Positions 38,384 through 64,000 of a stretch of DNA of 64,000 nt are shown piece by piece. The stretch's first letter is position 1. Each line of letters begins with the position of its first letter. This DNA is from a bacterium. Lineage in GTDB: Bacteria > DUMJ01. Location of the stretch: NCBI GenBank assembly GCA_014360335.1, contig JACIXS010000100.1:24431-88430 (forward strand). Direction: 5' to 3'. Position numbers and translations under genes: made by a program. The notes beneath the pieces are model-generated. The model was not told the DNA's origin. It did no database searches and was given only the letters and a program-made list of their open reading frames with translations.

Positions 38384-38394
38384 GTAAAAGCTGT

Positions 38395-40260: not shown

Positions 40261-41924
40261 GATTAACCGGGGCACAGATAGTTATTGAAGCATTGAAACA
40301 TGAAGGGGTAGATGTTATCTTTGGAATCCCAGGAGGAGCAATCATTGATGTCTATGATGCCTTATATGATTCAGGTATAAGACATATCCTTGCCCATCAT
40401 GAGCAGGGTGCAGCCCATATGGCTGATGGTTATGCTAGAGCTACTGGAAGAGTAGGAGTATGTTTTGCTACCTCAGGCCCTGGAGCAACTAATCTTACTA
40501 CAGGAATAGCTAATGCTTATATGGATTCTATCCCTATAGTAGCGATTACAGGACAGGTAGCTACTCATTTGATAGGGAAAGATGCATTTCAGGAGGCAGA
40601 TACAACTGGTATTACTTCACCAATAACAAAGCACAATTATCTTGTAAAAGACGTTAATGAATTAGCCAGAATTATAAAGGAAGCATTCTATATAGCAAGA
40701 ACTGGACGACCTGGGCCTGTCCTTATAGACATACCTAAAAATATACAAACTGCTACTGCTGATTTTGATTACTCTTCTATAGAGATTGATATAAGGGGTT
40801 ACAAGCCTTCAATAACCGGACATATAAGACAGATAAAGGAAGCGGCTAGGCTTATAAATGATGCTAAGAAGCCTTGTATATTAGCTGGAGGCGGAGTTAT
40901 AACTGCAGGTGCAAGTGAGGAGCTCTTTAAATTAGCCACGAAAGCTAATATACCTGTGGCAACAACCTTTATGGGTATAGGAAGCTTCCCTCAAGACCAC
41001 CCATTATCCTTAAAATCCGCTGGTATGCATGGTAATTATGCTGCGAACTATGCCCTTATGGAGTGTGACCTACTCATAGCTATAGGATGTAGATTTAGTG
41101 ATAGGACTACTGGTAAGGTTTCTAGTTTTGCTTCTAAGGCTAAAAAGATTCATATAGATATAGACCCTGCCGAGATAAATAAGAACGTAATAGTAGATGT
41201 CCCTATAGTTGGAGATGCTAAGATTATCTTGAAAGCACTTATAGAATACGTTCAAGAGAAGAGGGAAGAGGAATGGCTAAGTTATATTATGGAACTCAAA
41301 GCTACTCATCCCCTTACATATGCAGATGGACCTACAATTAAGCCTCAATTTGTTATAGAGAAGCTCTGTGAGATAGTCCCAGATAATACAATTATAGTAA
41401 CAGAGGTAGGACAGAATCAGATGTGGTCCGCTCTATTTTTCACCCATAAAAAGCCTAGACACTTTATATCTTCTGGTGGTTTAGGAACTATGGGTTTTGG
41501 TTTTCCTGCTTCTATTGGAGCTAAGGTTGGTAGACCTGACGCGCTTGTAATCGATATAGCAGGGGATGGAAGTTTTCTAATGAACATTCAAGAACTTGCC
41601 ACTGCAGTAGAGAATAACATACCTATTAAAGTAGTTGTAATAAATAACAGGGCTCTTGGAATGGTTAGACAGTGGCAAGAGTTGTTCTATAAAAGGAGAT
41701 ATTCTGCTACTATCTTGAAAGAGGTTAATTTTGCTGAGATAGCAAAGGCTTTTGGAGCTAAGGGGATAAGGGTGACTGAGAAGGAAGGACTAGTTCCTGC
41801 TCTATACAGCGCTTTTGAATATCCAGGACCTGCGGTGGTGGATGTAGTAGTAGAACAGGAAGAGAATGTGGTACCGATGGTTCCTCCGGGTGCTCCAATA
41901 GACCAAATTATTGGAGGTAAGTAG
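40257..41924 (+). CDS. ilvB: Acetolactate synthase, large subunit
   Basis: TPP enzyme with the [21 protein letters not shown]-binding motif. Confidence 0.93.
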
Positions 41925-41925
41925 G

Positions 41926-42414
41926 ATGAGACATACTATTGCAGTCTTAGTAGAAAATAAATCTGGAGTATTAGCAAGGATATCTAACCTCTTTAGAAGA
42001 AGGGGGTACAATATAGAGAGTATTACTGTTGGAAAGTCGGAGAGGGAGGGAATAGCTAGGATAACATTAGAAGTAGACGGAGATGAATTAGTTATAGAAC
42101 AAGTAACAAAACAGCTAAATAAGCTTATAGATGTGATAAAAGTGAGCGACATAACTCATGATGAGATGATAGAGAGAGAACTTATGCTTATAAAGGTTAG
42201 TGCTGATGCTTCTACTAGGTCTGAGATACTTCAGATTGTTGATATATTTCGTGCAAGCGTAGTTGATGTGAGCCCTAAGGCTTTGGTGATAGAGATTACT
42301 GGTGATAGAGATAAGCTAGAAGCTTTTGAGACATTACTTCGACCCTTTGGAATAAAGGAGATAGCTTGCACAGGTAAGGTTGCTATGGTTAGGCATCCTA
42401 AGGAAATTAAATAA
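41926..42414 (+). CDS. ilvN: Acetolactate synthase, small (regulatory ACT) subunit
   Basis: [26 protein letters not shown]-domain start. An ATG at 41926 with GGAGGT upstream is preferred over the upstream in-frame start at 41911. Confidence 0.88.
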
Positions 42415-42432
42415 AAAAGGAGGCGTTTACTT

Positions 42433-43431
42433 ATGGCAAAAATATACTATGAACAAGATGTAAAGTATGATGCGTTATCTGGAAAGACAGTTGCTGTTAT
42501 AGGTTATGGAAGTCAAGGAAGAGCACAATCGAGAAACTTAAAGGATAGTGGGGTAAAGGTTATTGTAGGACTAAGAAAAGGAGGAAGGTCTTGGGAATTA
42601 GCCAAGTCTGAAGGTATGGACGTTACGACAATAGAAGAGGCATCAGAAGTAGGAGATGTTATACAGATCCTTATCCCTGATCAGATGCAACAAGAAGTGT
42701 ATGAAACTTCTATTAAGAAGCATCTAAATGAGGGAAAAGCACTAGGTTTTTCCCATGGTTTTAACATACACTATCATCAGATTATCCCTCCTGAGGGAGT
42801 GGATGTTTTTATGGTAGCACCTAAAGGACCTGGACCATTAGTAAGAAGAATGTACGAAGAGGGTAAGGGTGTTCCTAGCCTAATAGCTGTTTATAAAGAC
42901 TATTCAGGTAAAGCTAAAGATATAGCCCTTTCTTATGCAAAGGCTATTGGTTCTTTAAGGGCTGGGGTCATAGAGACTACATTCAAAGAAGAGACTGAGA
43001 CAGACCTCTTTGGTGAACAGGCTGTTCTCTGCGGAGGAGTAAACGAACTTATCAAGTATGGTTTTGAGGTCTTAGTAGAAGCTGGCTATCAACCTGAGAT
43101 TGCATACTTTGAATGTCTTAACGAGCTAAAGTTAATAGTAGACCTGATCTACGAGGGTGGAATTATAAATATGTGGAAAGGTGTAAGTGACACTGCTAAA
43201 TATGGTGGTTTGACGGTAGGACCTAAAATTATAACTAAGGAAGTAAAAGAACTTATGAGGAAAGCTTTGGAAAGGATACAGAATGGCGAATTTGCTAGAG
43301 AATGGGTGTTGGAGAATAAATCAGGTCAGGTAGTTCTTAAGGCTAGTATCGAATCCGCAGAGAATCATCCTATAGAAAAGGTTGGAAAGACTTTAAGGGA
43401 TATGATGCCATGGATAAAGAGGGGAGAGTAA
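42433..43431 (+). CDS. ilvC: Ketol-acid reductoisomerase
   Basis: [17 protein letters not shown] Rossmann motif; 332 aa. Confidence 0.95.
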
Positions 43432-43432
43432 A

Positions 43433-44923
43433 ATGAGAAAGGTCTTTATATTTGATACTACTCTTAGGGATGGCGAGCAAACCCCTAGAGTTACACTTGA
43501 ACCTCAAGAGAAACTTAGGATAGCTAAACAGCTTGAGGAAATGGGGGTAGATGTTATAGAGGCCGGTTTTCCCATTGCGTCTCCAGGTGATGTAGAAGCG
43601 GTTACTATAATCTCTAAAGAGATAAAGAATAGTATAGTATGTGGGTTGGCTAGGTCTATTAGGAAGGATATAGATACAGCGTGGTCTGCCCTTCAGTATG
43701 CAAAAAGACCTAGGATACACGTGTTTATAGCAACTAGCGATATACATATGAAGTATAAGCTGAGAAAGACTAAGGAGGAAGTATTAGAACAAGCTGTGGA
43801 GGCGGTAAGATATGCCAAATCTCTCTGTGAGGATGTGGAATTCTCCGCTGAAGATGCCACTAGGTCAGACCCAGAATTCTTAAGAGAGATTTTCTTACGA
43901 GTTATAGAGGCAGGAGCTACAGTTATAAATGTTCCTGATACTGTCGGTTACTGTGTGCCAAGTGAGTTCGGAAATCTTATAGCTCAGGTAAGAAGTTATA
44001 TCCCAGAAGATATCATTTTAAGTGTCCACTGCCATAATGACTTAGGTCTAGCTACTGCTAATTCCTTAGTTGGTGTACTTAATGGAGCTAATCAGGTAGA
44101 GGTAGCTATGAATGGATTGGGAGAAAGGGCAGGGAATGCTGCCTTTGAAGAAGTGGTAATGGCTATAAAAACAAGAAAAGACATATTTAACGCATATACA
44201 GATATAAAGACAGAGTATATTATGAGTCTAAGTAGGCTTGTAAGTGGGCTTACCGGCATACCAGTTCAGCCAAACAAAGCTATTGTTGGCATTAATGCCT
44301 TTGCTCATGAAGCGGGAATTCACCAGGATGGTATTCTTAAGGAGAGAAGCACTTACGAGATAATGAATCCTAAAGATATAGGTCTAGATTCCTCCGAGAT
44401 AGTGCTAGGTAAACATTCTGGTAGACATGCCCTTAATGAAAGGCTTAAACAGTTAGGTTACGTTCTCTCGGAAGAAGAACTGACTAGGGTTTTTGAAAGG
44501 TTTAAGGTGCTTGCTGATAAAAAGAGAGAGATCCTAGATAGAGACCTTATAGCCCTTTTAGAGGAAAAGCCTGTAGAATTACCTGTGTATAGACTCGTTA
44601 ATATGGAGGTAACAACAAAGATAAATAATAGCTCATATGCAAAGGTAGACCTTGAAAAAGCCGAAGAGAGATTCCATGGAGAATCAGAAGGAGATGGACC
44701 TATTGAGGCGCTTTTTAATGCTATAGAAAACGCTATTAATATGCACTTTGACCTTATAGACTTTTCTCTAAAGTCTGTTACTATGGGTAAAGATGCTTTG
44801 GGAGAAGCCTTAGTTAAGCTGAAAAAGGATGGAGAGGTTCATTCTGGTAGAGGCACTAGCAAGAACATTCTTGAGGCTAGTGTTATAGCATATATAAACG
44901 CTATAAATAGGGCTCTTGCTTAA
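43433..44923 (+). CDS. leuA: 2-isopropylmalate synthase / (R)-citramalate synthase family (short LeuA/CimA form)
   Basis: FDTTLRDGEQ N-terminal motif, HxH (HCHNDLGLA), and a C-terminal regulatory domain; 496 aa. Confidence 0.85.
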   Translation: MRKVFIFDTTLRDGEQTPRVTLEPQEKLRIAKQLEEMGVDVIEAGFPIASPGDVEAVTIISKEIKNSIVCGLARSIRKDIDTAWSALQYAKRPRIHVFIATSDIHMKYKLRKTKEEVLEQAVEAVRYAKSLCEDVEFSAEDATRSDPEFLREIFLRVIEAGATVINVPDTVGYCVPSEFGNLIAQVRSYIPEDIILSVHCHNDLGLATANSLVGVLNGANQVEVAMNGLGERAGNAAFEEVVMAIKTRKDIFNAYTDIKTEYIMSLSRLVSGLTGIPVQPNKAIVGINAFAHEAGIHQDGILKERSTYEIMNPKDIGLDSSEIVLGKHSGRHALNERLKQLGYVLSEEELTRVFERFKVLADKKREILDRDLIALLEEKPVELPVYRLVNMEVTTKINNSSYAKVDLEKAEERFHGESEGDGPIEALFNAIENAINMHFDLIDFSLKSVTMGKDALGEALVKLKKDGEVHSGRGTSKNILEASVIAYINAINRALA

Positions 44924-44962
44924 TCCCTACTAGGTTGATATAATCTAATATAGGTAAGAAAG

Positions 44963-46219
44963 ATGGGAATGACACTTACAGAAAAGATTATTTCTGCGCA
45001 TACAAATAAGGATGAGGTTCATAGCGGGGAATTTGTAATAGCTAAAGTCGATTTTTCTCTTGCCAATGATATAACTGGTCCTTTAGCTATTAAAGAGTTT
45101 GAGAAGATAGGGGTAGATAGGGTTTTCGATAAAGAGAGAATTGCACTTATCCCCGACCATTTTACCCCTAATAAGGATATCCCTAGTGCCGAGCAGTGTA
45201 AAGTCTTGAGAGAATTTGCCCGTAGGATGGACCTTAAATATTACTATGAAGTAGGACGGGTAGGTATCGAACATGCCCTTCTACCTGAAGAAGGCTTAGT
45301 TGTCCCCGGTGATGTAGTTATAGGTGCAGATTCGCATACATGTACCTATGGAGCTTTAGGGGCTTTCTCAACAGGTGTAGGAAGTACAGATTTGGCTAAT
45401 GTCTGGGCTACAGGTGATATATGGCTTAGAGTCCCTGAGAGTATAAAGTTTATACTATATGGTAAGCCTCAAAAGTGGGTCACTGGTAAAGATATTATCC
45501 TGAACATTATAGGACGTATAGGGGTAGAAGGGGCAAATTATATGGCGATGGAATTTTCAGGCGAAGCTCTAAAGTATATTTCTATGGACTCAAGATTTAC
45601 TATATGTAATATGGCTATCGAAGCTGGTGCAAAAAATGGTATTATCCCTTTTGATGATATTACAGCTAACTATATGAAGGGTAGAAACAAGAGACCTTAT
45701 AAGATATATCTTCCAGATGAGTCTGCAGATTATAAAGAGATAATAGAGATAGATGTCTCTAGCATCCCACTAGAAGTGGCTCTCCCTCATTTACCTTCTA
45801 ATGTAAAGTCTGTAGAGGACATTGGAGAGATATATATAGACCAAGTAGTCATAGGTTCTTGCACAAACGGAAGAATGGAAGACTTAAGGATAGCTGCTCA
45901 GATTTTAAAGGGCAAAAAGGTCCATCCATACGTTAGATTAATAGTCATTCCTGCCACCCAAGAGATATATCTACAGGCTTTAAAGGAGGGACTTATAGAG
46001 ATATTTATCTCTGCCGGTGCTAGTGTTTCTACACCTACCTGTGGTCCATGCTTAGGTGGACATATGGGTATCTTGGCTAAGGGGGAAAAAGCATTAGCAA
46101 CTACTAATAGGAATTTTATAGGCAGAATGGGTCATCCAGAAAGTGAAGTCTATCTCTGTGGACCAGCTGTAGCAGCTGCCTCTAGCATAGAAGGAAAGAT
46201 AACTGCTCCATATGATTAG
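44963..46219 (+). CDS. leuC: 3-isopropylmalate dehydratase large subunit (archaeal-type, about 420 aa, aconitase family)
   Basis: Aconitase-family cysteine triad region (GSCTNGR...CGPCLG). Confidence 0.85.
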
Positions 46220-48406: not shown

Positions 48407-49057
48407 TTGCCAATAATAACCATATCAAGAGAGGTAGGCAGTGGTGGAGATGAGGTAGCCCATAGATTGTGCGAAGTATTAGGTTACCGATACTTTGATA
48501 AGGCACTTATGACAGAAGTTGCTGTTAAGATGGGGATATCGGAAGTAGAGGTTATAGACTACTCTGAAGATAGCTATAAACTACGTTCCTTTATAGATAA
48601 TCTTTTTAGACGTCGTGAGCCTCTAGCCACCATAACGATTAGAGGGACAAATTCTGCAGGAGAGATAACTCATATGACTGAGGTTTTAGATGAAGAGAGA
48701 GCTCTCAAACTTATACAGAGAACTATAGAAAGACTAAGAGAAAAAGGTAACATAGTTATAGTAGGACGTGGAAGTCAAGTAATACTTAGAGATGCTCCAG
48801 GGGTTCTTCATGTAAGGATAGTTGCCCCAATAGAACAGCGTATAAGCTATATAATGATAAATCGTAGTCTTACTAGAAACGAAGCTAGAGAATACCTGGA
48901 AGCTAAAGATAGGGCATCTGCAGAATATCTACGGAGATTTTATGGAGTAGATTGGAATGACCCTTCCCTTTATCATCTTGTGATAAATATGGGTAGATGG
49001 AATACCGATGAGGCGGTAGAGATTATTCAATATGCTCTAAAGAAGATACAAGGCTAG
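48407..49057 (+). CDS. Cytidylate-kinase-like family P-loop protein
   Basis: Degenerate P-loop REVGSGGDEV and a roughly 215-aa Cytidylate_kin2-like layout. TTG start with GGAGGTG 9 nt upstream. Confidence 0.6.
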   Translation: MPIITISREVGSGGDEVAHRLCEVLGYRYFDKALMTEVAVKMGISEVEVIDYSEDSYKLRSFIDNLFRRREPLATITIRGTNSAGEITHMTEVLDEERALKLIQRTIERLREKGNIVIVGRGSQVILRDAPGVLHVRIVAPIEQRISYIMINRSLTRNEAREYLEAKDRASAEYLRRFYGVDWNDPSLYHLVINMGRWNTDEAVEIIQYALKKIQG

Positions 49058-50178
49058 GAAGGATCTGTATAAGAAGATATCTTACCTTCGAAGTTTCTAA
49101 GTAATATCTGGTCTCCATTCCTTCCTATGATATACTGTGGACTTACTGGTATCTTGCCCATACCTGGAGCATCTATTACAAATGTGGGAACAGCTAATCC
49201 TGAGGTAAACCCTTGAAGCGCTTCTATAATTTCTATCCCCTTTTCTACAGGAGTCCTAAAATGAGAAAGTCCTTCAACCATATCACATTGATATAAATAG
49301 TAAGGCCTTACTCTTATTTTTAACAATCCTTGAACTAGTTTCTTCATAACTGCTACGTCATCGTTTATCCCCTTTAAAAGGACCGATTGATTCCCTAAGG
49401 GTATTCCGGCATCTGCTAACATCTCACAAGCCCGAGATGATTCAGGGGTAATCTCATTTGGATGATTAAAATGAGTATTTATCCATATAGGATGATATTT
49501 CCGTAGCATACTGCATAATTCAGGGGTAACTCTTTGAGGTAGAGTTACTGGGACTCTTGTCCCTATTCTAATAATCTCAATATGGCTTATGTTCCTTAGA
49601 TTAGAAATTATCACCTCTATCATTCGATCAGGAAGGATTAGAGGGTCACCACCAGAGATGATTACATCTCTAATCTCTCTATGAGAAGCGATATATTCAA
49701 ATGCTTTATTTAGTTCTATATGATTACTGCTCTTTTTTACCTTCTCAGTTAATCTCCTCCTAGTACAGTGCCTACATAAAGTTGGACAGGAATCTGTCAC
49801 TAATAAGAGGACTCTATCTGGATATCTATGGACTAATCCAGGTAAAGGGGAATAGACATCCTCTTTTAAAGGGTCTTCTGTCTCATATGGCATATGCTCT
49901 AATTCGTGTATACTTGGTATCGACTGAAGTCTTATAGGGTCATTATAATTTGATTGATCTATCAGTGAAAGATAATAAGGGGTTATAGCCATTTTTAAAT
50001 ATTTCAAACTCTTTTCTATATCTTCCTTCTCTTGTTCTGCTAAATCCAGAATCCTCTCTAAGTCTTCCAATCTGGTGGTTCTATTTCTAAGTTGCCATCT
50101 CCAATCATTCCATACTTCTTTATCTACATCAAAAAAATCCCTAACTCTGAATTCTGATTTAGTTGACTCTGTCTCCAT
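49054..50178 (-). CDS. kamA: L-lysine 2,3-aminomutase (KamA, radical SAM/PLP), short form
   Basis: Collinear with Clostridium KamA as recalled (WNDWRWQLRNR, CPTLCRHCTRR radical-SAM cluster, VRPYYLYQCD, PTFVIDAPG). It lacks the roughly 40 C-terminal residues of the clostridial enzyme. Confidence 0.85.
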   Translation of the reverse strand: METESTKSEFRVRDFFDVDKEVWNDWRWQLRNRTTRLEDLERILDLAEQEKEDIEKSLKYLKMAITPYYLSLIDQSNYNDPIRLQSIPSIHELEHMPYETEDPLKEDVYSPLPGLVHRYPDRVLLLVTDSCPTLCRHCTRRRLTEKVKKSSNHIELNKAFEYIASHREIRDVIISGGDPLILPDRMIEVIISNLRNISHIEIIRIGTRVPVTLPQRVTPELCSMLRKYHPIWINTHFNHPNEITPESSRACEMLADAGIPLGNQSVLLKGINDDVAVMKKLVQGLLKIRVRPYYLYQCDMVEGLSHFRTPVEKGIEIIEALQGFTSGLAVPTFVIDAPGMGKIPVSPQYIIGRNGDQILLRNFEGKISSYTDPS

Positions 50179-50181
50179 CCT

Positions 50182-51198
50182 TTAACTCCCTTCCTTATTT
50201 AAGAGAGCTGGATATCTTGAAATTCCAGCCTTTAAGATTCTAGCAATTAAATCTTTATAACTTATACCTTTAACCATAGCCATACTGGGAAAGTTTCCCT
50301 CTTTTGGATCAAGGTCTGGTAACGGATTTACTTCTAGGACGTATGGGATTTCATCTTTAGAAACTCTAATATCTAGTCTAGCTAGATCTCTGCACCTAAG
50401 AACTCTATATACTTTTAGTGAAATATTACATATCTTTTCGTATAGGCTTTTAGTTAGAGAAGCTGGACAGTAATGTTTCACCAAATGCCAGTATTTAGCT
50501 TTTATTATTCCACTAGCAAACTTACCAAGTTCGTCAGGGATAGATGAAAAATCAAGTTCTTTTATCGGTAGGACCTCTGGAGGAGCATTTCCCAATATGC
50601 CTACAGTGAGTTCTCGACCTTCTACAAATTCTTCGACTAGTGCAGGCTGACGATAAAGGTCGATAATCTTTGCAATCTGTTCTTTTAATTCTTTGAATGA
50701 GTACACTATGCTTCTACTATCTAGTCCCATACTAGAACCTTCATGGCTCGGCTTTACAATTATAGGAAATCGCAAATCTCCTATATTTTGTGTCTCTTTA
50801 AGATTGGATATAACGGTATATCTAGGTGTAGGAATATGCTCCGCGATAAAGATTTGTTTTGTTATAGGTTTATCTAAAGTTATAGCCATTGTCAGCGGAC
50901 CAGAACCGGTATAGGGTATTCCTAGCCATTCTAAAATAGCAGGAACATGAGATTCCCTAGATTCTCCTCTTATCCCTTCTCCAATGTTGAATACTATATC
51001 TGGCGAAAGCTCCTTTAAATTTTCAACAAAGGACTCATTTGCCTCAACAGGGAAAACCTTATGGCCTAAAGACTCTAAAGCCTGAACTATAGCCTCTATA
51101 GTCCGGGGCGGATCAAACTCCGCGTATCGGTCTGGAGGTTCATCATCCTCCACTATAATCTCTTCTGGTTTTTTATTAAAAGCCAAGACTATTTTCAT
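50182..51198 (-). CDS. ATP-grasp ligase of the D-alanine--D-alanine ligase family (divergent)
   Basis: Ddl-like blocks (GEGIRGES...LEWLGIPYTGSGP, KPSHEGSSMG, EVNPLPDL). Its context (kamA, no mur genes) argues against canonical Ddl. Confidence 0.7.
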   Translation of the reverse strand: MKIVLAFNKKPEEIIVEDDEPPDRYAEFDPPRTIEAIVQALESLGHKVFPVEANESFVENLKELSPDIVFNIGEGIRGESRESHVPAILEWLGIPYTGSGPLTMAITLDKPITKQIFIAEHIPTPRYTVISNLKETQNIGDLRFPIIVKPSHEGSSMGLDSRSIVYSFKELKEQIAKIIDLYRQPALVEEFVEGRELTVGILGNAPPEVLPIKELDFSSIPDELGKFASGIIKAKYWHLVKHYCPASLTKSLYEKICNISLKVYRVLRCRDLARLDIRVSKDEIPYVLEVNPLPDLDPKEGNFPSMAMVKGISYKDLIARILKAGISRYPALLNKEGS

Positions 51199-56597: not shown

Positions 56598-56643
56598 TTT
56601 ATATCCTTAACTTTTTTGAGATTTTGAATACACACCTAAGGTA

Positions 56644-56671
56644 TTATACTATAAAGAGACCCATAAGACAA
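56644..56671 (-). promoter_or_regulatory. Putative promoter TTGTCT-N17-TATAAT for hisB-hisH-hisA-hisF-hisIE
   Basis: Read on the minus strand in the 75-nt gap between the glxK stop and the hisB start. Confidence 0.3.
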
Positions 56672-56672
56672 C

Positions 56673-57815
56673 TTAGCAAGATTTAAGTGCCTTTATTAAG
56701 CTACCAATCTGATAAGAAATCCATTCCAACTGTTCTTTAGTGCGCCTTATTGATTCTTCTAAGGTTATAGGGCCTCTAGTAACTGAGAATAGGGCGTCTG
56801 CCAATCCCTCCTCTATTAGAATTTCAGCATCTTCGTCTACAGCTCCACCTAATAGTATCACAGGTATAGCCTTCTCTTTAGCCTTTTTAGCTATTCCCGC
56901 TGGACCCTTCCCAAATATTGTTTGTCCATCTATCTTTCCTTCACCACTTATAACTATGTCTACTCCTTCTAATTTTCTCTCTATATCTAAAGTCTCTAAA
57001 ACAACTTCAATTCCAGGCTTTAGCTTGGCATTTAAAAAGGCAACTAGTCCTCCTCCTAATCCTCCAGCCGCTCCTGCTCCTGGAAGGTTCAATATATCCT
57101 TACCCAAGTCTCTTTTAACCACTTGAGCAAAATTAAATAATGCCCTATCTAATTCTTCTATTAACTCTTTGGTTCCACCCTTCTGTGGACCATAAACATA
57201 AGAAGCTCCTTCAGGTCCACATAGGGGATTTTTTACATCCGCCATTACTATAACTTCACACTCTTTTGCCAAAGGATGAAAATTACTCATATCAATAGTG
57301 TGAAGTTCTTTAAGTGCCAGTCCACCAAAGGGTAACTCTCTACCCTCTTTATCTAATAGCCTTGCTCCTAAAGCCTGTGACATTCCTGCACCGCCGTCAT
57401 TAGTAGCACTTCCACCTATTCCCACTAGTATTCTCTTTACTCCTCTATCTAATGCTTCCCTTATGAGTTCACCAACACCATAGGTAGTAGTAATAGCAGG
57501 GTTTCTTTTTTCTTTCGGAACTAAGGCTAAACCAGAAGCCCTTGCCATTTCTATAACAGCAGTCTTACCGTCACCTAGAATGCCAAACTTTGCTATTATT
57601 CTTTCTCCTAGAGGACCGGTTACCTCTTTTTCTATAAACTGTCCATTGGTAGCCTCTACTAAGACCTCAATTGTCCCATCCCCACCATCTGCTATTGGTA
57701 GAACGATAATATCACTATTAGGGAGGGCTTTTAAGAGCCCTCCCTTTATAGCCTCTCCAGCCTCTCTGGCGGAAAGAGCTTCCTTAAATGCGTTAGGAGC
57801 CACCAGTATCTTCAT
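56673..57815 (-). CDS. glxK: Glycerate kinase (GK-I / GlxK family)
   Basis: [12 protein letters not shown]...IADGGDGT N-terminus typical of the glycerate kinase family; 380 aa. Confidence 0.85.
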
Positions 57816-58795
57816 TTTTTCAACACTTCCGGATTTACCGGATTGGGTGGCATCTTTCCTGCTAATACCGCTAGGAGATTCTCTGCAGCCATCGTAGCCA
57901 TCTTGGTCCTTGTCTCTACACTTGCACTGGCTATATGAGGTAGTAGAACTGCATTCTCACATTCTGCTAATCCTGGGACAAGCTTAGGCTCAAACTCATA
58001 GACATCCAATCCTGCTCCTGCTATCCACCCTTCTTTTAGAGCCTTTACTAATGCATTTTCATCTACTACTGGTCCCCTTGAAGTGTTTATAAGATAAGCG
58101 GTCTTTTTCATCTTCTTTAGTCTCTCTTCATTTATCAGGTGATAAGTCTCAGGAGATAGATAGGTATGAAGTGAGACAAAATCGCTCTGCTCTAGAAGCT
58201 CATCTAAAGAGACAAATGTGGCATTTAATTCTTTTTCAAGTTCTTCAGGTATTCTCCTTATATCATTGTATAGGACCTTCATATTGAAACCTTTTGCTCT
58301 TCTTGCTACAGCCTGTCCAATCCTTCCCATGCCTATGATACCTAGTGTCTTTCCATAAACATCCTGCCCAAGAAAGAGCATAGGAGCCCAGCCTTCATAC
58401 TTTCCTGCTCTCGTAAACTTATCCGCTTCTACTACTCTTCTAGCGGTAGCTAAAATAAGAGCCCATGCCAAGTCTGCTGTAGTCTCAGTAAGAACCCCTG
58501 GGGTATTTGTTACTACTATACCTCTTTTAGTTGCCTCATTTACATCTATATTGTCATAACCTACCGCATAATTACTTACAACCTTTAACTGGGGCCCAGC
58601 AGCATCAAACACTTCCGCATCTATCTTATCTGTTAAGAGACAGAGTATGCCATCCTTGCCCTTTACTGCTTGAAGTAACTCCTCTCTTGTTAATACCCTA
58701 TCGTATGGATTTATCTCTACCTCATGCTCCTTTCTTATCATTTCTATTCCGGGCTCTGGAATACGCCTGGTTATATAAACCTTCAATGTATACAC
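57812..58795 (-). CDS. D-isomer-specific 2-hydroxyacid dehydrogenase (glyoxylate/hydroxypyruvate reductase type)
   Basis: NAD-binding GxGxxG ([12 protein letters not shown]) and the catalytic R/E/H arrangement; 327 aa. Confidence 0.85.
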
Positions 58796-58798
58796 CTC

Positions 58799-60145
58799 CT
58801 AGCTTAGTAAAAATCCTGATGATGATATTATATCACCTAAACCTACTGTAAGCTTTGGTGACTGAACTACCTTGGTAGGAACTATTACAAGGCTGAAATT
58901 GTCTATATTCTTAATACCTTCGTACCCAGTTAATGTTATAGTTGGAACTCCTAAGCCTTTCTCTAAGTCTTCTAATGTCTCGTATCTGCCAAGTAGAGAC
59001 CTTGTGGCAGCTAAGATAGCAGAGAATAGAAGAGCGGTTCTCTCATTTCGCTCATTCTTTTCCCTAGTAATAGATATATAATGCCCAAGAGTGTGAAGTT
59101 GAATCCTCTTAAGAGGAGTCCTTTCCATAATCTTTAGCAAACCATCCACCAATTTTACTATAGGGAATCTTGTGTCTTTAAGTTCTTTTGCTAAATCTTG
59201 CTCTCCAAAATCACTAAGCAGTGTGGCAAATTCAATCTCGTTTAATCCGAGACTATCTATAACGGGGAATATATGCTTTACCACTAGACTTCTTATCAGA
59301 GAACTTCCGATAGAGGCAAATTCATAGTGGACCTTTAAACCTAATCTTTCTTTCATCTGGCTTACGAATTCGGCAACTGGAACTATAAAGTCTTCGCAGG
59401 TTTTACCCTCAGGATACCTTTCTAAAAGAATATGAAAGCCTGATACTAAGAAGTGTGTAAATTTATCTGGTATGAGGAATATATCTCTTTTAAACTCTTC
59501 ACTTACCCTTAATCTACAATTTACAGGATTCCAAGCTGCTATGAACCTATTGGCTCTTGGAGATTCATAGGTTGTTCCATCGAGCTCTATCTTTAATCCT
59601 TTATTGTATTCTAATATCCAGTGTATAGCAAATATCCCCTGGTCCTTCCATGCTTTTCTAGGAGAACGGAGTACTGGTTTATCATTCTCTCTAGTTAAAA
59701 CAAAGAGATTTTTTCTTTCAGGGAAGAGTTCAGCAAGTTCTTTGGTTAATGGATTTGCATATACTAGAATCTTTGAGAGTGGTAAAGGGGACAATAGACT
59801 AGCCATATTTGCCGAAGTTCCGCCAAGCCTCAATTGGTCATATCCAATGTTTTCTAAGGTCCATCTAAAGGTCTCTTCATTCTCTATCATCCTCTGATAG
59901 GCTAAACCTTCTCTTATGGAGATAAGGAGGTCAACAAGTAAGTCCTCTGGACTCCTTATAACCGATGTTGGTTCACTAGGAATACTTTTAATATGTGGAA
60001 ATTGCTCTAGAAGCCTCTTTAAGAGGTCTTCTTCTACTCTCTTTAATCCATCTATCGTTGAATGAAATCCAGTTATTACACCTGGAATCCTCTGTAGTTT
60101 TTTCCAGCCCTCCTCTAAAGCCTCTCTATACAGTTCTTCCCACAT
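58799..60145 (-). CDS. ADP-dependent sugar kinase family protein (archaeal ADP-glucokinase / ADP-phosphofructokinase family)
   Basis: Collinear blocks with Thermococcus/Pyrococcus ADP-GK/PFK as recalled: WEELY...GFHSTIDGL (archaeal WKRLY...AYNTNIDAI), LRLGGTSANMA, PRANRFIA, LGLNEIEFA, RIQLHTLGHY, ALLFSAILAA, and the C-terminal IVPTKVVQSPKLTVGLGDIISSSGF (archaeal [25 protein letters not shown]). Confidence 0.8.
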   Translation of the reverse strand: MWEELYREALEEGWKKLQRIPGVITGFHSTIDGLKRVEEDLLKRLLEQFPHIKSIPSEPTSVIRSPEDLLVDLLISIREGLAYQRMIENEETFRWTLENIGYDQLRLGGTSANMASLLSPLPLSKILVYANPLTKELAELFPERKNLFVLTRENDKPVLRSPRKAWKDQGIFAIHWILEYNKGLKIELDGTTYESPRANRFIAAWNPVNCRLRVSEEFKRDIFLIPDKFTHFLVSGFHILLERYPEGKTCEDFIVPVAEFVSQMKERLGLKVHYEFASIGSSLIRSLVVKHIFPVIDSLGLNEIEFATLLSDFGEQDLAKELKDTRFPIVKLVDGLLKIMERTPLKRIQLHTLGHYISITREKNERNERTALLFSAILAATRSLLGRYETLEDLEKGLGVPTITLTGYEGIKNIDNFSLVIVPTKVVQSPKLTVGLGDIISSSGFLLS

Positions 60146-60995
60146 TGTCTAAAGCCTCCTTGTACGCCTCTTCGGAAGAATAGTTCTTGTGTAGTATAAG
60201 TTTCATAGCTAAAGCCATAACCTCAGGTTTATCACTTAGGAATACATTTCTACCAACCACGAAACCACTAGCTCCAGCCTTTACGCCATCTTCGAAGTCT
60301 CTAAGGACATCTAAAGGATTTTCTCTCTTTGGACCTCCTAAAAGTAGTACCTTAGCATTTACACTATCTATTATCCTCTTAAATAGTTCTATACCCTCTT
60401 CCCTGGAGTTACTCTTTACATAGGGGATTTTAAGTATCGGCACCCTAAAGTCGTTAGTTATTATAGAGACCCACTTTATAGCCTCATAAGACCTATCCAT
60501 AACCAACTTTCCATCCTCTAGATTCATATAGAGGGGTTCTACCATAAGAGGCATAGACCATTTCTCGCACTCTTCTACCACATTAGCTAGAAGTGTTAAC
60601 TGCTCATTAGTAAACTGATTATTCTTATTGAACTTTATTAGAAGTTTTACTCCATCTAGTCCCCATCTAAGAGCGGTTTCTACCGTACAAACACATCTAT
60701 CATCCATCTCAAAAGTTGTTCCAGCTAGCCCAGTTCTATTAAGGCTTAATACTAATCCTTTATCTCTTAGGTTACCATTGACTATAAGTTGAGCTAAAGG
60801 CTCTTTTGTGGTCATTATAGCATCCAGATAGGGGGCTAATCTTTCTATGAGAGAAACCAAATTAGCAAAGTTATCTATCCCTTCTTGAATGCCTCGCTGT
60901 CTATGGTCTATAGCTAGAACCATGGACTTTCCATCTTTTGCAAAGATCCGAGACATCCTATTGGTTATTCCTACATCATAAAAAAGTGACTCCAT
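60126..60995 (-). CDS. Archaeal-type class I fructose-bisphosphate aldolase family (DeoC/FbaB-like) aldolase
   Basis: RIFAKDGKSMVLAIDH (Schiff-base aldolase N-terminal block) and C-terminal GASGFVVGRNVF, as in class IA FBA and ADH synthase. Confidence 0.78.
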   Translation of the reverse strand: MESLFYDVGITNRMSRIFAKDGKSMVLAIDHRQRGIQEGIDNFANLVSLIERLAPYLDAIMTTKEPLAQLIVNGNLRDKGLVLSLNRTGLAGTTFEMDDRCVCTVETALRWGLDGVKLLIKFNKNNQFTNEQLTLLANVVEECEKWSMPLMVEPLYMNLEDGKLVMDRSYEAIKWVSIITNDFRVPILKIPYVKSNSREEGIELFKRIIDSVNAKVLLLGGPKRENPLDVLRDFEDGVKAGASGFVVGRNVFLSDKPEVMALAMKLILHKNYSSEEAYKEALDNVGRTV

Positions 60996-61006: not shown

Positions 61007-62029
61007 TTAGTCGTTTATTACTACAGCCTTTCCAGTCTTACTAGATTCATAGACCGCAAGTATAAATTGTATAGCTCTTCTACCATCCTCTCCAGTTATA
61101 CTAGGGGTCCTATTGTATAATACTGCTTCTGCCATATCTCTTATCTGTGCTATATGCCCTTTTATAAAGAGAGCTCTAGGGTCACTTGATGCTGATTCTC
61201 CTTGAGTAGATAAGCCTTTTCTCTCTTCTCCCTTTATAAACCAGTCTCTTACGAAAGGACCTTCTACCACTACACTACCATTTGTCCCATGAACCTCTAT
61301 CCTCTCTTTGAAGCCGGGATAACAGGCAGTTGAACCCTGTATTACACCTAAGGCTCCATTTTTGTACTTTATAATGGCTATAGCCACATCCTCCACCTCT
61401 ATATTGTGTGCTAGAGTCCCACAGTATGCAGTTATCTCTTTGACAGGTCCTGCAAGATAGAGAAGTTGATCCACAAAATGTACGGATTGATTCATTAGTG
61501 CTCCTCCACCATCTAGAGCCCAAGTTCCACGCCAATCTGCACTATCATAATATTCCTGTGTTCTCCACCACTTTACATAGGCATCAGCCATAACAATCTT
61601 ACCAAGTTTTCCTGAATCTATGGCAGATTTTAGTTCTTGAATTCCAGGGTCAAATCTATGCTGTGATATAACACTAAGTTTAACTCCTGCTTTTTGACAG
61701 GCCTCTATAAGGGCATCAGCCTTTTCTAATGTAATATCTATTGGTTTTTCCACCAAAACGTGCTTTCCTTTTTTCGCAGCCTTTATACCCAAATCTGCAT
61801 GTAATCCACTAGGGACACAGATATTTATTACATCTATGTCATTTCTAGCTAACATCTCATCGTAATCAGCATACCAGTCCACGCCGTACTTTTCTCCTAA
61901 AGCCTTGGCTCTTTCCGGTATAATATCACATACAGCCTTTAACTCTGCTATCTCTATATTCTTTATAGCTTCCGCATGTGTTGGACCTATAACGCCACAT
62001 CCAACTATACCAAATCTTACTTTATTCAT
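61007..62029 (-). CDS. Gfo/Idh/MocA-family NAD(P)-dependent oxidoreductase (inositol 2-dehydrogenase-like)
   Basis: RFGIVGCGVIG Rossmann N-terminus and a C-terminal Gfo/Idh/MocA domain; 340 aa. Confidence 0.85.
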   Translation of the reverse strand: MNKVRFGIVGCGVIGPTHAEAIKNIEIAELKAVCDIIPERAKALGEKYGVDWYADYDEMLARNDIDVINICVPSGLHADLGIKAAKKGKHVLVEKPIDITLEKADALIEACQKAGVKLSVISQHRFDPGIQELKSAIDSGKLGKIVMADAYVKWWRTQEYYDSADWRGTWALDGGGALMNQSVHFVDQLLYLAGPVKEITAYCGTLAHNIEVEDVAIAIIKYKNGALGVIQGSTACYPGFKERIEVHGTNGSVVVEGPFVRDWFIKGEERKGLSTQGESASSDPRALFIKGHIAQIRDMAEAVLYNRTPSITGEDGRRAIQFILAVYESSKTGKAVVIND

Positions 62030-62033
62030 ATTA

Positions 62034-62855
62034 TCACCTCTCTATCTCAGACAATATTTTCTTTAATGCTTGAGAAGCTTTTTTAAAGAGCTCAGGACCA
62101 GAAAATCCTTGAAATTGCCCACTATGAGCAAGGTGTGGTTCAAGGCTCAAGAAATATTCTCTGCTTTTTTTCTTCAGAGACATCAAAAGTTCCTTTATTT
62201 CTCCATCTCCTTCTCCAGCAGGAACTTCAACTCCATCTGAGAAGTGCGCATCTTTTATATGAACATACTCTATATAATCTTCTAAAAGTGGATAAGCCTC
62301 TCTAAAGGGCTTAACATTGCACTGTATAAAGTTTGAAGGGTCAAATACCGCTTTTAGATTTGGAGAGTTTATACTCTTTAGTATATCGAGACACCTTTCA
62401 GGTGTATCTCCATATATCTTCTTTTCGTTTTCATGTAATAGTATAACTCCTTCTTTCTCTGCTATCTTTACAAGTTCTCCTAACCTTTCTAAGGATATCT
62501 TTCTAAGCTCATCTATGCTCATACCTTCTTCTGGATAGAATGAGAATATCCTGATATATGAGGTACCGAAGAAATGTGCTAGTCTTATGGCATTCTGTAG
62601 CTTCTCCTTTTGTCCTTCTATATCTTCCTTCGCTCTAACCTTTCCGATTGGAGATGCTATAGCAGATACCTTTATTCCATAATTATCTAACATCTCCTTT
62701 ATCTTCTTGCTATCTTCTTCGGTCAGAGTTACAACATTCTTACCAAAGGCGCTTCTTAACTCCAGGTAACCTATCTCCTCCTCTTTTAGTATTTTTAGCT
62801 GTTTCTCAAAGTCAGGTGATATTTCATCACCAAAACCAGAGAGTTTATACCACAT
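62034..62855 (-). CDS. Sugar phosphate isomerase/epimerase (xylose isomerase-like TIM barrel; IolE/IolI-like)
   Basis: AP_endonuc_2-type TIM barrel pattern (HENE..., metal ligands spaced as in inosose dehydratase/isomerase). Confidence 0.75.
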   Translation of the reverse strand: MWYKLSGFGDEISPDFEKQLKILKEEEIGYLELRSAFGKNVVTLTEEDSKKIKEMLDNYGIKVSAIASPIGKVRAKEDIEGQKEKLQNAIRLAHFFGTSYIRIFSFYPEEGMSIDELRKISLERLGELVKIAEKEGVILLHENEKKIYGDTPERCLDILKSINSPNLKAVFDPSNFIQCNVKPFREAYPLLEDYIEYVHIKDAHFSDGVEVPAGEGDGEIKELLMSLKKKSREYFLSLEPHLAHSGQFQGFSGPELFKKASQALKKILSEIER

Positions 62856-62868
62856 CTTTTTTCCCTCC

Positions 62869-63666
62869 TTATAACTCTTTAACTATCTGTTCTGCCCATT
62901 TTATCCAGGCGTGCTTTACATCATCTCTAGGAATATTTACAGGGTCCTCTCCTGCTAATACCCATAAATAGTATAACGAATATCCTGGTGCAGCTACTAC
63001 AGGATGATATCCTCTGGTGATGGGAAGGGCTGTATAATCCGTTACTGTATAGACCTCATCCATATCTCCCTCTTCTGTATATATCCTCTGAAAGCCAAAC
63101 CCACTAGGTGGATTTAGCCTATATAGGTAAACCTCCTCCATCTTCCACTCATAGGGAGGATTATGTTTATCATGCTTGTGTGGAGGATAGCTAGACCAGT
63201 TTCCTGGAGGATTGACAGTTTCTCCCATTATTATATGTTTTGCTCCAATCCTTTTATCTATAACCTGGGTTACATATCTCTTCCAGTTATGTGTACCAAC
63301 AACTCTTCTTTCTACTTCATTCGGATTTATTACTGTTACGTCTACATTATTTGGTTCTGACTTTACAGTTGCAAAGACTAATTCACTATTATCCAAAGCC
63401 TTGATATCTACTTTTTTCCCTGGAGGAATATATAATCCCCAAGGTTTACTGTTGAATATCTCACTCCTAGGTCCTAGTATATATCTACTATCGACCTCTA
63501 CCCTTCCAGTGCATAGAAGACATCCGATTTCCCTTTCTTTCTCTCCTAAAGATACAACTTCACTAGATTTCAATCTAAGGACAAATAACCTTGTCCATTC
63601 AAGACCCTGTACAGGAACTTCTAATATCCCTGTACCTTCTGGGACTTTAGCTAGTTTAGAACTCAT
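62869..63666 (-). CDS. iolB: 5-deoxy-glucuronate isomerase-like cupin (IolB/KduI family)
   Basis: PGNWSSYPPHKHD and EEVYLYR...GFGFQRIY blocks recalled as IolB hallmarks; 265 aa. Confidence 0.72.
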   Translation of the reverse strand: MSSKLAKVPEGTGILEVPVQGLEWTRLFVLRLKSSEVVSLGEKEREIGCLLCTGRVEVDSRYILGPRSEIFNSKPWGLYIPPGKKVDIKALDNSELVFATVKSEPNNVDVTVINPNEVERRVVGTHNWKRYVTQVIDKRIGAKHIIMGETVNPPGNWSSYPPHKHDKHNPPYEWKMEEVYLYRLNPPSGFGFQRIYTEEGDMDEVYTVTDYTALPITRGYHPVVAAPGYSLYYLWVLAGEDPVNIPRDDVKHAWIKWAEQIVKEL

Positions 63667-64000
63667 CTATTCCCACTCCTTTCTTAAGTATTCAAGACTT
63701 TTAGGTAATTCGTTCTTCTTATCCTCCCATCTGCACTCTATAGATATAGCCCCTTTATAGTTTGCCTCTTTAAGGGCATTAAATAGGGCTTTGAAATTAT
63801 AGTTGTTTTTCCCTGGTGCAACTCTTCCTCTATCGGATACGTGTACATGATAAAGTTTTTCTTTTATTTTATAGATATTAGATAATGGTTCATCCTCCAA
63901 ATCTGCATGATAATTGTCTATCAGTACCCCTATATTTGGGCTATTGACCCTCTCTGCAAACTCTAACCCTTCTAATGTGGTATTTATAATATTACTCTCC
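63667..64000 (-). CDS. Second xylose isomerase-like TIM-barrel protein, C-terminal part (5' end lies beyond the window)
   Basis: The frame is open to the window edge (…LEGLEFAERVNSPNIGVLIDNYHADMEDEPL…HVHVSD…). Confidence 0.7.
   Translation of the reverse strand, partial: ESNIINTTLEGLEFAERVNSPNIGVLIDNYHADLEDEPLSNIYKIKEKLYHVHVSDRGRVAPGKNNYNFKALFNALKEANYKGAISIECRWEDKKNELPKSLEYLRKEWE

Follow-up and report, generated by a model that had tools for sequence, protein, structure and literature searches.

In the breakdown of myo-inositol, the kinase IolC (5-dehydro-2-deoxygluconokinase) supplies 6-phospho-5-dehydro-2-deoxy-D-gluconate (DKGP), which an aldolase cleaves to dihydroxyacetone phosphate (DHAP) and malonate semialdehyde. 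The cleavage of such a kinase-made phospho-5-keto sugar acid is ascribed to the class II aldolase IolJ in Bacillus subtilis, and the same job has been proposed computationally for DUF2090, another class I-like domain, where it is fused to IolC (Price et al., 2022; PMC9007349). Among class I (Schiff-base) aldolases, the fructose-bisphosphate aldolase (FBA) of Thermoproteus tenax (1w8s/1ojx) serves glycolysis and the ADH synthase MJ0400 (2qjg) aromatic amino-acid synthesis, and Cgl0159 of Corynebacterium glutamicum (3fok) has had a structure since 2009 with its activity not assigned. Here we analyse a 64,000-nucleotide stretch of bacterial DNA (the window; GTDB lineage DUMJ01, assembly GCA_014360335.1, contig JACIXS010000100.1, positions 24,431 to 88,430) in which the gene for a divergent Cgl0159-like aldolase is followed by that for an ADP-dependent sugar kinase. 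We think it fairly probable that the two proteins work as an IolC/IolJ-like pair, with a phosphorylated keto sugar acid rather than fructose bisphosphate (FBP) as substrate. The aldolase is probably not a glycolytic FBP aldolase, and the surrounding operon is most likely an uncharacterised unit for the breakdown of a sugar acid or of inositol. The aldolase is not homologous to the class II IolJ and has no match to PF09863 (DUF2090), and its co-product is unlikely to be malonate semialdehyde.

The two genes share exactly 20 nt, with the ribosome-binding site of the kinase (GGAGG) falling within the 3'-terminal part of the aldolase gene, and the pair is translationally coupled (Table 1). In the public record, the aldolase is 'hypothetical protein H5T89_04110 [bacterium]' (MBC7319807.1), and a near-identical sibling in its 90% cluster has been named 'class I fructose-bisphosphate aldolase' by the Prokaryotic Genome Annotation Pipeline (PGAP). 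The start of the kinase is backed by a 100% identical 448-aa NCBI protein (MBC7319806.1). Because the coupled kinase would make the substrate of the aldolase, we regard the pair as a probable non-orthologous equivalent of IolC/IolJ and not of phosphofructokinase (PFK) and FBA.

An AlphaFold (AF2) model of the aldolase, for which 24 homologues served as input, is a (beta/alpha)8 barrel (pLDDT 90.6, pTM 0.90). In Foldseek comparisons it matched MJ0400 (2qjg; TM 0.79/0.85, 26% identity), LsrF (4p2v; TM 0.77/0.80, 22% identity), Cgl0159 (3fok; TM 0.77, 26% identity) and T. tenax FBA (2yce; TM 0.72/0.82, 24-25% identity); sequence identity to every solved structure is 22-27%, that is, remote. The model superimposes on the barrels of MJ0400, T. 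tenax FBA and LsrF, which puts it in the DhnA-like fold group. K189 (motif ILKIPY) aligns with K184 of MJ0400 (IVKTSY) and K177 of T. tenax FBA (AMKIKY), D30 (the Asp of the DH motif) and Y156 align with the Asp/Tyr pair of the same two enzymes, and the GGP (220-222) and GRN (248-250) motifs align with their phosphate-binding motifs. Because these residues coincide, the protein is predicted to be a class I, DHAP-type Schiff-base aldolase, which would form an imine with its substrate and release DHAP. Across 107 relatives from five groups (described below), D30, K117, E153, K189, G220-G221 and G248-R249 are invariant, and the polar set D30, H31, R34, D58, N86, R87, E96, D98/D99, K117, E153, K189 and R249 is essentially so, R100 and D98 being variable in the group of fusion proteins.

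The subfamily was judged by the curated NCBIfam cutoffs (scan at E<=0.01) and by Pfam (E<=0.001). The top-scoring Pfam family was PF22649, Cgl0159-like (103.5 bits, E=1.5e-29, threshold 27), which was present in 53/53 aldolase homologues; PF01791 (DeoC/LacD) followed with 75.4 bits (E=6.5e-21, threshold 23.8), and the top sequence match in the PDB was again Cgl0159 (3fok, E=3.6e-24). Both Pfam matches are well beyond what chance would give. The candidates that we rejected on these cutoffs were the archaeal class I FBA equivalog NF040816 (92 bits vs 430), the FbaB-type model PRK09250 (14.9 vs 277), ADH synthase (TIGR01949, 124 vs 299.45; PRK07226, 135.4 vs 241; aro genes do not adjoin the aldolase) and the LsrF thiolase NF006081 (84 vs 297; LsrG/LsrK-type genes are not in the operon). 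No DeoC model was among the NCBIfam matches of the aldolase, and PF09863 was not among its Pfam matches. As far as such models can tell, the aldolase belongs to a separate subfamily, distinct from every characterised one.

The blocks RIFAKDGKSMVLAIDH and GASGFVVGRNVF align with RIFARRGKSIILAYDH and GALGIAVGRNVW, respectively, of the T. tenax class IA FBA, and also with MJ0400. A third block, SLNRTGLAGTTFEMDDR, aligns with SMNRGGLRGASFEMDDR of Cgl0159 but with nothing in MJ0400 or T. tenax FBA; we propose that it binds the distal (acid) end of the substrate. What the window aldolase shares with T. tenax FBA and MJ0400 is the fold (TM 0.72-0.85), the position of the lysine, the Asp/Tyr pair and the GGP/GRN motifs, whereas identity is 24-26%, the beta3-beta4 region differs, and the context is a LacI-regulated catabolic operon instead of glycolysis or aromatic amino-acid synthesis. 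With Cgl0159, in contrast, it has in common the SxNRxGLxGxxFEMDDR block and D30, R34, N86, R87, E96, D98, D99, R100, K117, E153, K189 and R249. Relatives of Cgl0159 likewise adjoin genes for a sugar-acid kinase and IolB. Identity to Cgl0159 is nevertheless only 26-29%, and Pro or Met stands in Cgl0159-type proteins where the window aldolase has Tyr156, as FBA and ADH synthase do; this tyrosine is kept only in the window lineage and in the Hadarchaeota.

These results bear on the original prediction, made from the DNA letters and their translations, which had proposed an archaeal class IA aldolase of the FBA/ADH synthase kind in functional partnership with the kinase. The open reading frame, the two quoted blocks (RIFAKDGKSMVLAIDH and GASGFVVGRNVF), the order of aldolase then kinase and the 20-nt overlap were all correct. 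A Schiff-base lysine was found at the conserved position; the protein falls outside the DeoC group, its nearest relatives being Cgl0159, ADH synthase and FBA. The label itself holds for the DhnA/FbaB-like class I fold and fails for the subfamily, since the protein falls short of the curated models. The functional pairing is strongly supported by comparative genomics, to which we return below.

The kinase has ADP-PFK as its top NCBIfam match, and it stays below the cutoffs for both ADP-PFK (TIGR02045, 279.7 vs 408.1) and ADP-dependent glucokinase (GK; NF010641, 238.6 vs 554). The ADP-dependent kinase family has been described with three specificities only, namely PFK, GK and bifunctional, and the fructose 6-phosphate (F6P) complex and an alanine scan of AncMsPFK have been published (PMC7948494). 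We mapped the kinase sites onto AncMsPFK (6c8z). The catalytic machinery is retained: the GXGD aspartate that acts as the catalytic base (D438, in GLGD), the metal-binding NEXE motif (NEIE, 302-305), R206 at the nucleotide phosphate (R200) and the sugar-binding D36 (D32) are in common with AncMsPFK (6c8z/6xio) and with the GK of T. litoralis (1gc5). The sugar pocket differs from both. The three PFK-specific residues that hold the F6P phosphate, K179, N181 and R212, are replaced by A173, H175 and N206; the glucose-binding E90 is Q84; the N32 that is conserved family-wide is H28; and N34 (sugar/phosphate contact), Q116 (sugar ring) and Q244 (phosphate contact) are T30, T110 and H238. The resulting signature, H-T-D-Q-G-T-A-H-R-N-H, contrasts with NNDEGQKNRRQ in PFK and NNDEGQLHRDQ in GK. 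It recurs, as H-(T/V)-D-Q-G-T-A-H-R-N-H, in all of about 120 bacterial kinase clusters, 37-100% identical to the window kinase, whose sources include Firmicutes/Limnochordia, Omnitrophota, Latescibacteria and Chloroflexi. By this signature, these kinases form a coherent clade with a sugar pocket predicted to fit neither PFK nor GK specificity, and they look like a clade with its own, uncharacterised substrate. A reuse of the F6P-phosphate site for a carboxylate was considered and rejected: the phosphate residues would be expected to be kept, and K179 and R212 have become Ala and Asn. Our literature search, which was partial in its coverage, found no paper characterising this clade.

The aldolase subfamily is rare, with about 35 clusters at >=38% identity among 5.8 billion protein clusters, all of them metagenomic. 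A scan of GTDB species genomes, together with a set of Cgl0159-type proteins, gave four groups, to which fusions of a TIM barrel with a Cgl0159-type domain add a fifth. Group (i) is the window lineage, six species-level metagenome-assembled genomes titled 'bacterium' with aldolases 78-95% identical to that of the window; the same nine genes are found in 17/17 loci of this group, these six included. Group (ii) is from Hadarchaeota (42-45% identical; loci L002, L003, L007, L008, L009, L018, L019 and L020 among them), and there the order is FGGY kinase, aldolase and a hexapeptide-repeat (acetyltransferase-like) protein, the FGGY gene adjoining the aldolase in nine Hadarchaeota loci. These FGGY kinases score 114 bits against the autoinducer-2 (AI-2) kinase model. 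Divergent from the Hadarchaeota unit lie two DeoC-type genes, one of which encodes a 409-aa fusion with a 4Fe-4S ferredoxin domain, together with a gene for an aldehyde:ferredoxin oxidoreductase (AOR). Group (iii) spans about 70 species, mostly Acidimicrobiales (30-39% identical; L022-L091), and tblastn placed an FGGY kinase directly 3' of the aldolase in most of its roughly 70 loci. The sole locus of this group examined in detail (L044:7671-13502) has, in order, a glycoside hydrolase of family 4 (GH4), a dehydrogenase like 3-hydroxyisobutyrate dehydrogenase (HIBADH) and tartronate-semialdehyde reductase, the aldolase, the FGGY kinase and a LarA-like nickel-pincer 2-hydroxyacid racemase; another locus of the group, L022, carries an extra KduI/IolB gene. 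Group (iv), the Cgl0159-type proteins of actinomycetes, is more distant (26-29% identical).

In group (iv), Nocardia and another actinobacterial contig (L010/L011) have the gene order PfkB (IolC)-Cgl0159-KduI (IolB)-thiamine diphosphate (TPP) enzyme (IolD), and IolG- and IolE-like genes lie near Cgl0159 in actinobacterial iol clusters. This gene context suggests that Cgl0159 fills the IolJ slot of a canonical actinobacterial iol cluster, and the polar active-site set of the window aldolase is identical in these iol-cluster proteins. The window differs from such clusters in that its kinase is ADP-dependent and not of the PfkB family, IolD is missing, and a reductase and a glycerate kinase are added. 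One relevant paper terms cg0198 a 'conserved hypothetical protein', and within the coverage of our search we found no paper on Cgl0159 and no assayed activity for it.

Thus the family of the kinase partner differs by lineage, being ADP-dependent in the window, FGGY in Hadarchaeota and Acidimicrobiales and PfkB in actinomycetes. Because the kinase stays adjacent while its family changes, the aldolase would act on the product of the kinase, and the two very likely act in sequence. Furthermore, an enzyme suited to a non-phosphorylated aldehyde stands beside the aldolase in each lineage: the reductase in the window, a HIBADH-type dehydrogenase in Acidimicrobiales (L044) and the AOR in Hadarchaeota. 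This argues for a singly phosphorylated substrate that is cleaved to DHAP and a free aldehyde, and therefore not for FBP.

In a scan of metagenomes, members of the kinase clade were also encoded beside the TIM-Cgl0159 fusions, or at most a few kb away, in at least five further loci (L110, L121, L122, L124 and L131). The fusion proteins (683-722 aa) have an N-terminal xylose-isomerase-like TIM barrel and a C-terminal Cgl0159-type aldolase domain sharing 37-40% identity with the iol-cluster protein of Nocardia. In L121, the kinase overlaps the fusion gene by 4 nt, and in L122 the order is fusion, IolB, TRAP transporter and ADP-dependent kinase, the IolB of this locus being 44% identical to the cupin of the window operon and scoring 223.4 bits against an equivalog cutoff of 205. 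Gfo oxidoreductases near kinase-clade loci are 44-48% identical to that of the window, a reductase 63% identical to the window's adjoins a fusion gene (L110), and one 68% identical adjoins a kinase (L117). Other genes around the fusion and kinase loci include DeoR, a PCC-domain protein, TRAP transporters, IolB and an M24-like or transketolase-like gene. The transketolase-like proteins, of about 760 aa, are encoded directly downstream of the kinase in eight loci, overlapping it in L121; they score 110-116 bits against transketolase models, far under cutoff, and could be a thiamine diphosphate-dependent alternative for ring opening or for the removal of hydroxypyruvate. A tblastn search of the window and its 17 related loci found no transketolase-like, inositol monophosphatase (IMPase), M24-like or PCC gene.

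The operon runs in the order LacI, TIM1, KduI/IolB cupin, TIM2, Gfo/Idh/MocA oxidoreductase, aldolase, ADP-dependent kinase, D-2-hydroxyacid dehydrogenase and glycerate kinase. The window ends within TIM1, and an exact-match search with the KduI protein returned no record; for the start of the operon (LacI and TIM1) we therefore relied on relatives, among them L012 with 95% identity. The gaps between genes in the window are -4, 13, 4, 11, -20, 3 and -4 nt. TIM1 was located by tblastn with its orthologue in L001 (80% identity over residues 141-250), and that orthologue scores 117.6 bits against the NCBIfam IolO model and 102.9 bits against the TM_0416 structure. IolO/TM_0416 of Thermotoga maritima is a 5-keto-L-gluconate 4-epimerase (PMC12632266). 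The cupin approaches the IolB equivalog (196.4 bits vs a cutoff of 205), and its only PDB relative is the IolB-like 2qjv (101 bits). TIM2 has no close characterised relative (top PDB match MJ1311, 34 bits) and no match to the IolE or Hyi models at E<0.01; the idea that it is a free-standing version of the TIM domain in the fusions found no support, with an hhalign probability of 1.1% and a BLAST E of about 0.005 from shallow alignments. The Gfo protein has IolG as its top NCBIfam match, well under the cutoff (185 bits vs 355), and its PDB matches are 3q2i/3q2k (220 bits), 3ezy (129), the glucuronide-3-dehydrogenase 8tdi (115) and an inositol 2-dehydrogenase (112). We take 3q2i/3q2k to be WlbA-type UDP-GlcNAcA 3-dehydrogenases.

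At the 3' end of the operon, the reductase almost reaches the NF009714 cutoff (450 bits vs 455), and it scores 392 bits against the Pyrococcus glyoxylate reductase 2dbq. Within the lineage its identity is 88-98%, higher than that of any other gene in the operon (67-95%). In the related locus L004, the operon stops at the glycerate kinase and the downstream neighbours differ, and for this reason we count the reductase and the glycerate kinase as part of the unit. In model and tblastn searches that covered the operon, the window and the 17 related loci, IolD, IolE and IolA were all absent. An actinobacterial IolD query hit, within the window, only IlvB of the ilv-leu operon (40257-41924), an IolE query gave no match, and the IolE model matched neither TIM1 nor TIM2.

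Table 1. Features of the aldolase-kinase operon in the window, and fusion and transketolase-like genes in related loci (positions of the latter are those of the locus named).
Feature	Position	Strand	Details
TIM1, IolO-like epimerase, 3' part	63667..64000	minus	cut by the window end; last 110 codons 63670-63999
KduI/IolB-family cupin isomerase, IolB-like	62869..63666	minus	PF04962, 239 bits
TIM2, xylose-isomerase-like TIM barrel	62034..62855	minus	PF01261, 96.6 bits
Gfo/Idh/MocA oxidoreductase, sugar or inositol dehydrogenase	61007..62029	minus	assigned by Pfam
Predicted class I (Schiff-base) aldolase, divergent Cgl0159-like subfamily	60126..60995	minus	ATG start, 289 aa
Block RIFAKDGKSMVLAIDH	60903-60950	minus	residues 16-31, within the aldolase ORF
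Block SLNRTGLAGTTFEMDDR	60696..60746	minus	residues 84-100; contains N86, R87, E96, D98, D99, R100
K189 codon, predicted Schiff-base lysine	60429..60431	minus	motif ILKIPY; aligned with MJ0400 and T. tenax FBA
Block GASGFVVGRNVF	60240-60275	minus	residues 241-252, within the aldolase ORF
Overlap of aldolase 3' end and kinase 5' end	60126..60145	minus	20 nt
ADP-dependent sugar kinase (ADP_PFK_GK family)	58799..60145	minus	448 aa; PF04587, 261 bits
Glyoxylate/hydroxypyruvate reductase (D-2-hydroxyacid dehydrogenase)	57812..58795	minus	3 nt after the kinase
Glycerate kinase	56673..57815	minus	PF02595, 488 bits; TIGR00045, 490 vs 168; 4-nt overlap with the reductase
TIM-Cgl0159 fusion	L110:14624-16675	minus	
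TIM-Cgl0159 fusion	L121:3391-5559		
TIM-Cgl0159 fusion	L122:744-2882		
TIM-Cgl0159 fusion	L131:2446-4590		
Transketolase-like protein	L121:6845-9127		
Transketolase-like protein	L131:10369-12639		
Transketolase-like protein	L139:2437-4764		five further loci

The operon can be read as a route in which the kinase and aldolase take the central place. The Gfo dehydrogenase and the two TIM barrels, the IolO-like epimerase among them, would make or trim a uronate-type intermediate, which the IolB-like cupin would isomerise to a 5-keto-hexonate with a CH2OH-C(=O)- terminus. The ADP-dependent kinase would then phosphorylate the primary hydroxyl beside the keto group, K189 of the aldolase would form an imine with C5 of the singly phosphorylated keto sugar acid, and retro-aldol cleavage between C3 and C4 would give DHAP and a non-phosphorylated acid aldehyde from C1-C3. 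From a 2-hydroxy substrate (of the fructuronate, tagaturonate or 5-keto-gluconate type), this aldehyde would be tartronate semialdehyde, which could tautomerise to hydroxypyruvate, possibly with the help of a TIM barrel, and hydroxypyruvate could be taken by the reductase to D-glycerate and by the glycerate kinase to phosphoglycerate. What the analysis shows is the fold of the aldolase, its catalytic residues and its family, the make-up of the operon and the conserved link between kinase and aldolase; we infer which substrate is used, whether its C2 is 2-hydroxy or 2-deoxy, which nutrient enters first, and what TIM1, TIM2 and the Gfo protein do. Within the IolC/IolJ-like reading, the version that yields tartronate semialdehyde seems to us possible, if somewhat short of an even chance. 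It would explain why the operon has an IolO-like epimerase, a reductase and a glycerate kinase and lacks IolD/IolE/IolA, and it would also account for the TRAP transporters of related loci and the gene like that of tartronate-semialdehyde reductase in L044. A carboxylate theme runs through this evidence: the other loci that combine kinase and aldolase carry TRAP transporters, and the first enzyme gene of the window operon encodes an IolO-like epimerase. More specifically, and only tentatively, we propose a 'uronate glycolysis' in which a hexuronate, or a uronate derived from inositol or a glycoside, would pass through a 5-keto-hexonate to DHAP and tartronate semialdehyde and on to phosphoglycerate, with an ADP-dependent kinase of a fourth specificity. 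No paper on this system appeared within the partial coverage of our literature search.

Parts of such a route have precedents. In glucarate catabolism, GarR and GarK convert tartronate semialdehyde to glycerate and then to phosphoglycerate. The downstream logic proposed here is the same, although the window reductase is a D-2-hydroxyacid dehydrogenase and not a HIBADH-type enzyme like GarR. The sulfo-EMP pathway (kinase YihV, sulfofructose-1-phosphate aldolase YihT, reductase YihU) follows a comparable plan of ketose isomerase, kinase and class I DeoC/LacD aldolase, giving DHAP and an anionic C3 aldehyde that goes to a dedicated reductase, and 8tnf, a structure to set beside this module, is a distant structural match of the window aldolase. 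The window would differ in handling a carboxylate instead of a sulfonate, in the families of its kinase and reductase, and in passing its product on to a glycerate kinase. In T. maritima (IolG/M/N/O), an IolG-like dehydrogenase and an IolO-like epimerase work on non-deoxy 5-keto-hexonates, a combination that is also present in the window operon. However, the T. maritima inositol route ends in the 2-keto-3-deoxygluconate (KDG) pathway with no kinase/aldolase step, and the window operon has no match to IolM or IolN.

Several observations weigh against this reading. The cupin is nearly an IolB equivalog and its L122 homologue passes the cutoff; this score suggests 5-deoxyglucuronate and thus a 2-deoxy substrate, DKGP itself. 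An IMPase-family gene beside L122-type clusters likewise hints at inositol. Because the reductase acts on 2-oxo acids, tartronate semialdehyde would need prior isomerisation to hydroxypyruvate, and the hydroxypyruvate isomerase model found no convincing candidate in the operon (TIM1 60 bits vs a cutoff of 353, TIM2 no match). The reductase, as the most conserved gene, might be a housekeeping passenger; the link from Cgl0159 to an IolJ analogue comes from gene context; and the kinase no longer has K179 and R212, cationic residues to which a carboxylate might have bound. Alternatively, the aldolase could be a true DKGP aldolase of a myo-inositol pathway, giving DHAP and malonate semialdehyde, with the kinase as an ADP-dependent analogue of IolC, a reading favoured by the IolB scores and the IMPase-family neighbour, by IolG being the best model for the Gfo protein, by the identical active-site residues of Cgl0159 proteins in canonical iol clusters and by the precedent of DUF2090. 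It would require that IolD, IolE and IolA lie elsewhere or have been replaced by unrecognised enzymes, and that the reductase and glycerate kinase are unrelated passengers. Yet these two genes are conserved and translationally coupled to the kinase, and the reductase recurs in two other loci. IolD, IolE and IolA are present in 0/17 loci of the lineage, the only TPP enzyme of the window is IlvB, and neither TIM barrel matches the IolE model; malonate semialdehyde does not suit a 2-oxoacid reductase and leaves the glycerate kinase idle; three conserved genes would lack a role and a ring-opening enzyme would be missing. We hold DKGP cleavage to be unlikely, and give it about the same weight as a variant within the general IolC/IolJ-like reading. 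The original prediction had offered, as one of two options, a DKGP-type cleavage giving DHAP in the adjacent pathway; this remains the favoured kind of reaction, as the best family of the protein, Cgl0159-like, takes the IolJ slot in actinobacterial iol clusters, while plain cleavage of DKGP to malonate semialdehyde is insufficient because the operon lacks IolD/IolE/IolA and contains a hydroxypyruvate reductase and a glycerate kinase.

The other option in that prediction, a second FBP aldolase, is not supported. A second archaeal-type class IA FBP aldolase, working with an ADP-dependent PFK or GK as a modified glycolysis module in a sugar operon, would agree with the fold and catalytic residues, with the PGAP name of the near-identical protein, with the best NCBIfam model of the kinase and with the binding of FBP by MJ0400, the top structural match. 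It is very improbable all the same: the aldolase is far below the FBA equivalog cutoff and has the Cgl0159-specific block that FBA lacks, the kinase has none of the three residues for the F6P phosphate nor the E90 that binds glucose, the operon is LacI-regulated and catabolic in composition, and the aldehyde oxidoreductases beside the aldolase in three lineages would be needless for FBP cleavage. A neutral or other phospho-ketose is a further candidate, such as a glycoside-derived ketose-1-phosphate that arises by a Gfo/TIM route and is cleaved to DHAP and glyceraldehyde or another aldehyde; alternatively, the enzyme could be an LsrF-like thiolase or an ADH-synthase-like transaldolase acting on a diketo phosphate. 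With His at the N181 position and with K179 and R212 lost, the kinase pocket indeed resembles that of GK more than that of PFK. Many kinase homologues stand alone or adjoin transketolase-like, GH4 or GH130 genes, for which reason the kinase could act on some widespread neutral sugar. In structure, LsrF and ADH synthase come as close to the aldolase as Cgl0159 does, and the FGGY partners in Hadarchaeota resemble AI-2 kinase. Nonetheless, the LsrF and ADH synthase cutoffs are missed by a wide interval (84/297 and 124/299) and neither LsrG nor CoA-linked genes are present; the invariant arginines R34, R87 and R100 are common to the window aldolase and the iol-cluster Cgl0159 proteins; the TRAP transporters and the IolB/IolO-like genes point to carboxylates; and the glycerate kinase suggests a C3 acid product, though glyceraldehyde could be oxidised to glycerate. 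Either form of this alternative seems to us quite improbable, and a phosphorylated keto sugar acid is the substrate that we prefer.

The public names of these proteins ('hypothetical' or 'class I fructose-bisphosphate aldolase' for the aldolase, 'ADP-dependent glucokinase/phosphofructokinase' for the kinase) would, if accepted as they stand, put a false step of modified glycolysis into metabolic reconstructions of uncultured bacteria. The fold and chemistry of the aldolase were already known, and an IolJ-analogous role is plausible; what is new is its combination with an ADP-dependent kinase of novel pocket and an operon composition that suggests an undescribed route. If the IolC/IolJ-like reading is true, it would give the Cgl0159-like aldolases a testable function, would add a new substrate specificity to the PFK, GK and bifunctional ones of the ADP-dependent kinases, and would establish a short pathway by which sugar acids or inositol reach DHAP and phosphoglycerate without the IolD/IolA or Ashwell steps. 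Should the 'uronate glycolysis' exist, it would be the first function for both the Cgl0159-like aldolases and the bacterial kinase clade (more than 100 sequence clusters), and it would suggest that the TIM-Cgl0159 fusions and the FGGY-linked and transketolase-linked variants are versions of one theme. For enzymology, clean targets are offered by the conserved active-site signature of these kinases and by the way in which the kinase partner has repeatedly been exchanged.

In the flanks of the operon, a scan for promoters and terminators returned sites no more frequently than expected by chance. One promoter-like site, TTGTCT-17-TATAAT (10 of 12), lies at 56643-56671 on the minus strand in the 75-nt gap between the glycerate kinase and hisB, and on that strand no terminator-like site was found between the glycerate kinase and the his genes; the downstream his genes may have their own promoter. 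Upstream in relatives (L001:315-5342, L004:2310-5299), and divergent from LacI, there is a gene of the URO-D/MtaA-CmuA-like methyltransferase family (a weak match, 50 bits), along with one or two genes for family-5 solute-binding proteins. These genes may serve the uptake or demethylation of the operon's nutrient.

Elsewhere in the window, translations point to a radical-SAM ORF with a CxxxCxxC motif, lysine 2,3-aminomutase-like (374 aa), followed by an ATP-grasp-like ORF (338 aa) at 49054-51198 on the minus strand, both adjoining an ORF like membrane H+-pyrophosphatase. An ilvD-ilvB-ilvN-ilvC-leuA operon-like run, judged by ORF sizes and one tblastn match, occupies 38596-46219, and a T-box leader (38384-38544, plus strand, 106.8 bits) lies just upstream of it. 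Finally, a tmRNA gene with the tag ADNQLALAA is found at 8117-8469 on the minus strand (Rfam 211 bits; ARAGORN).

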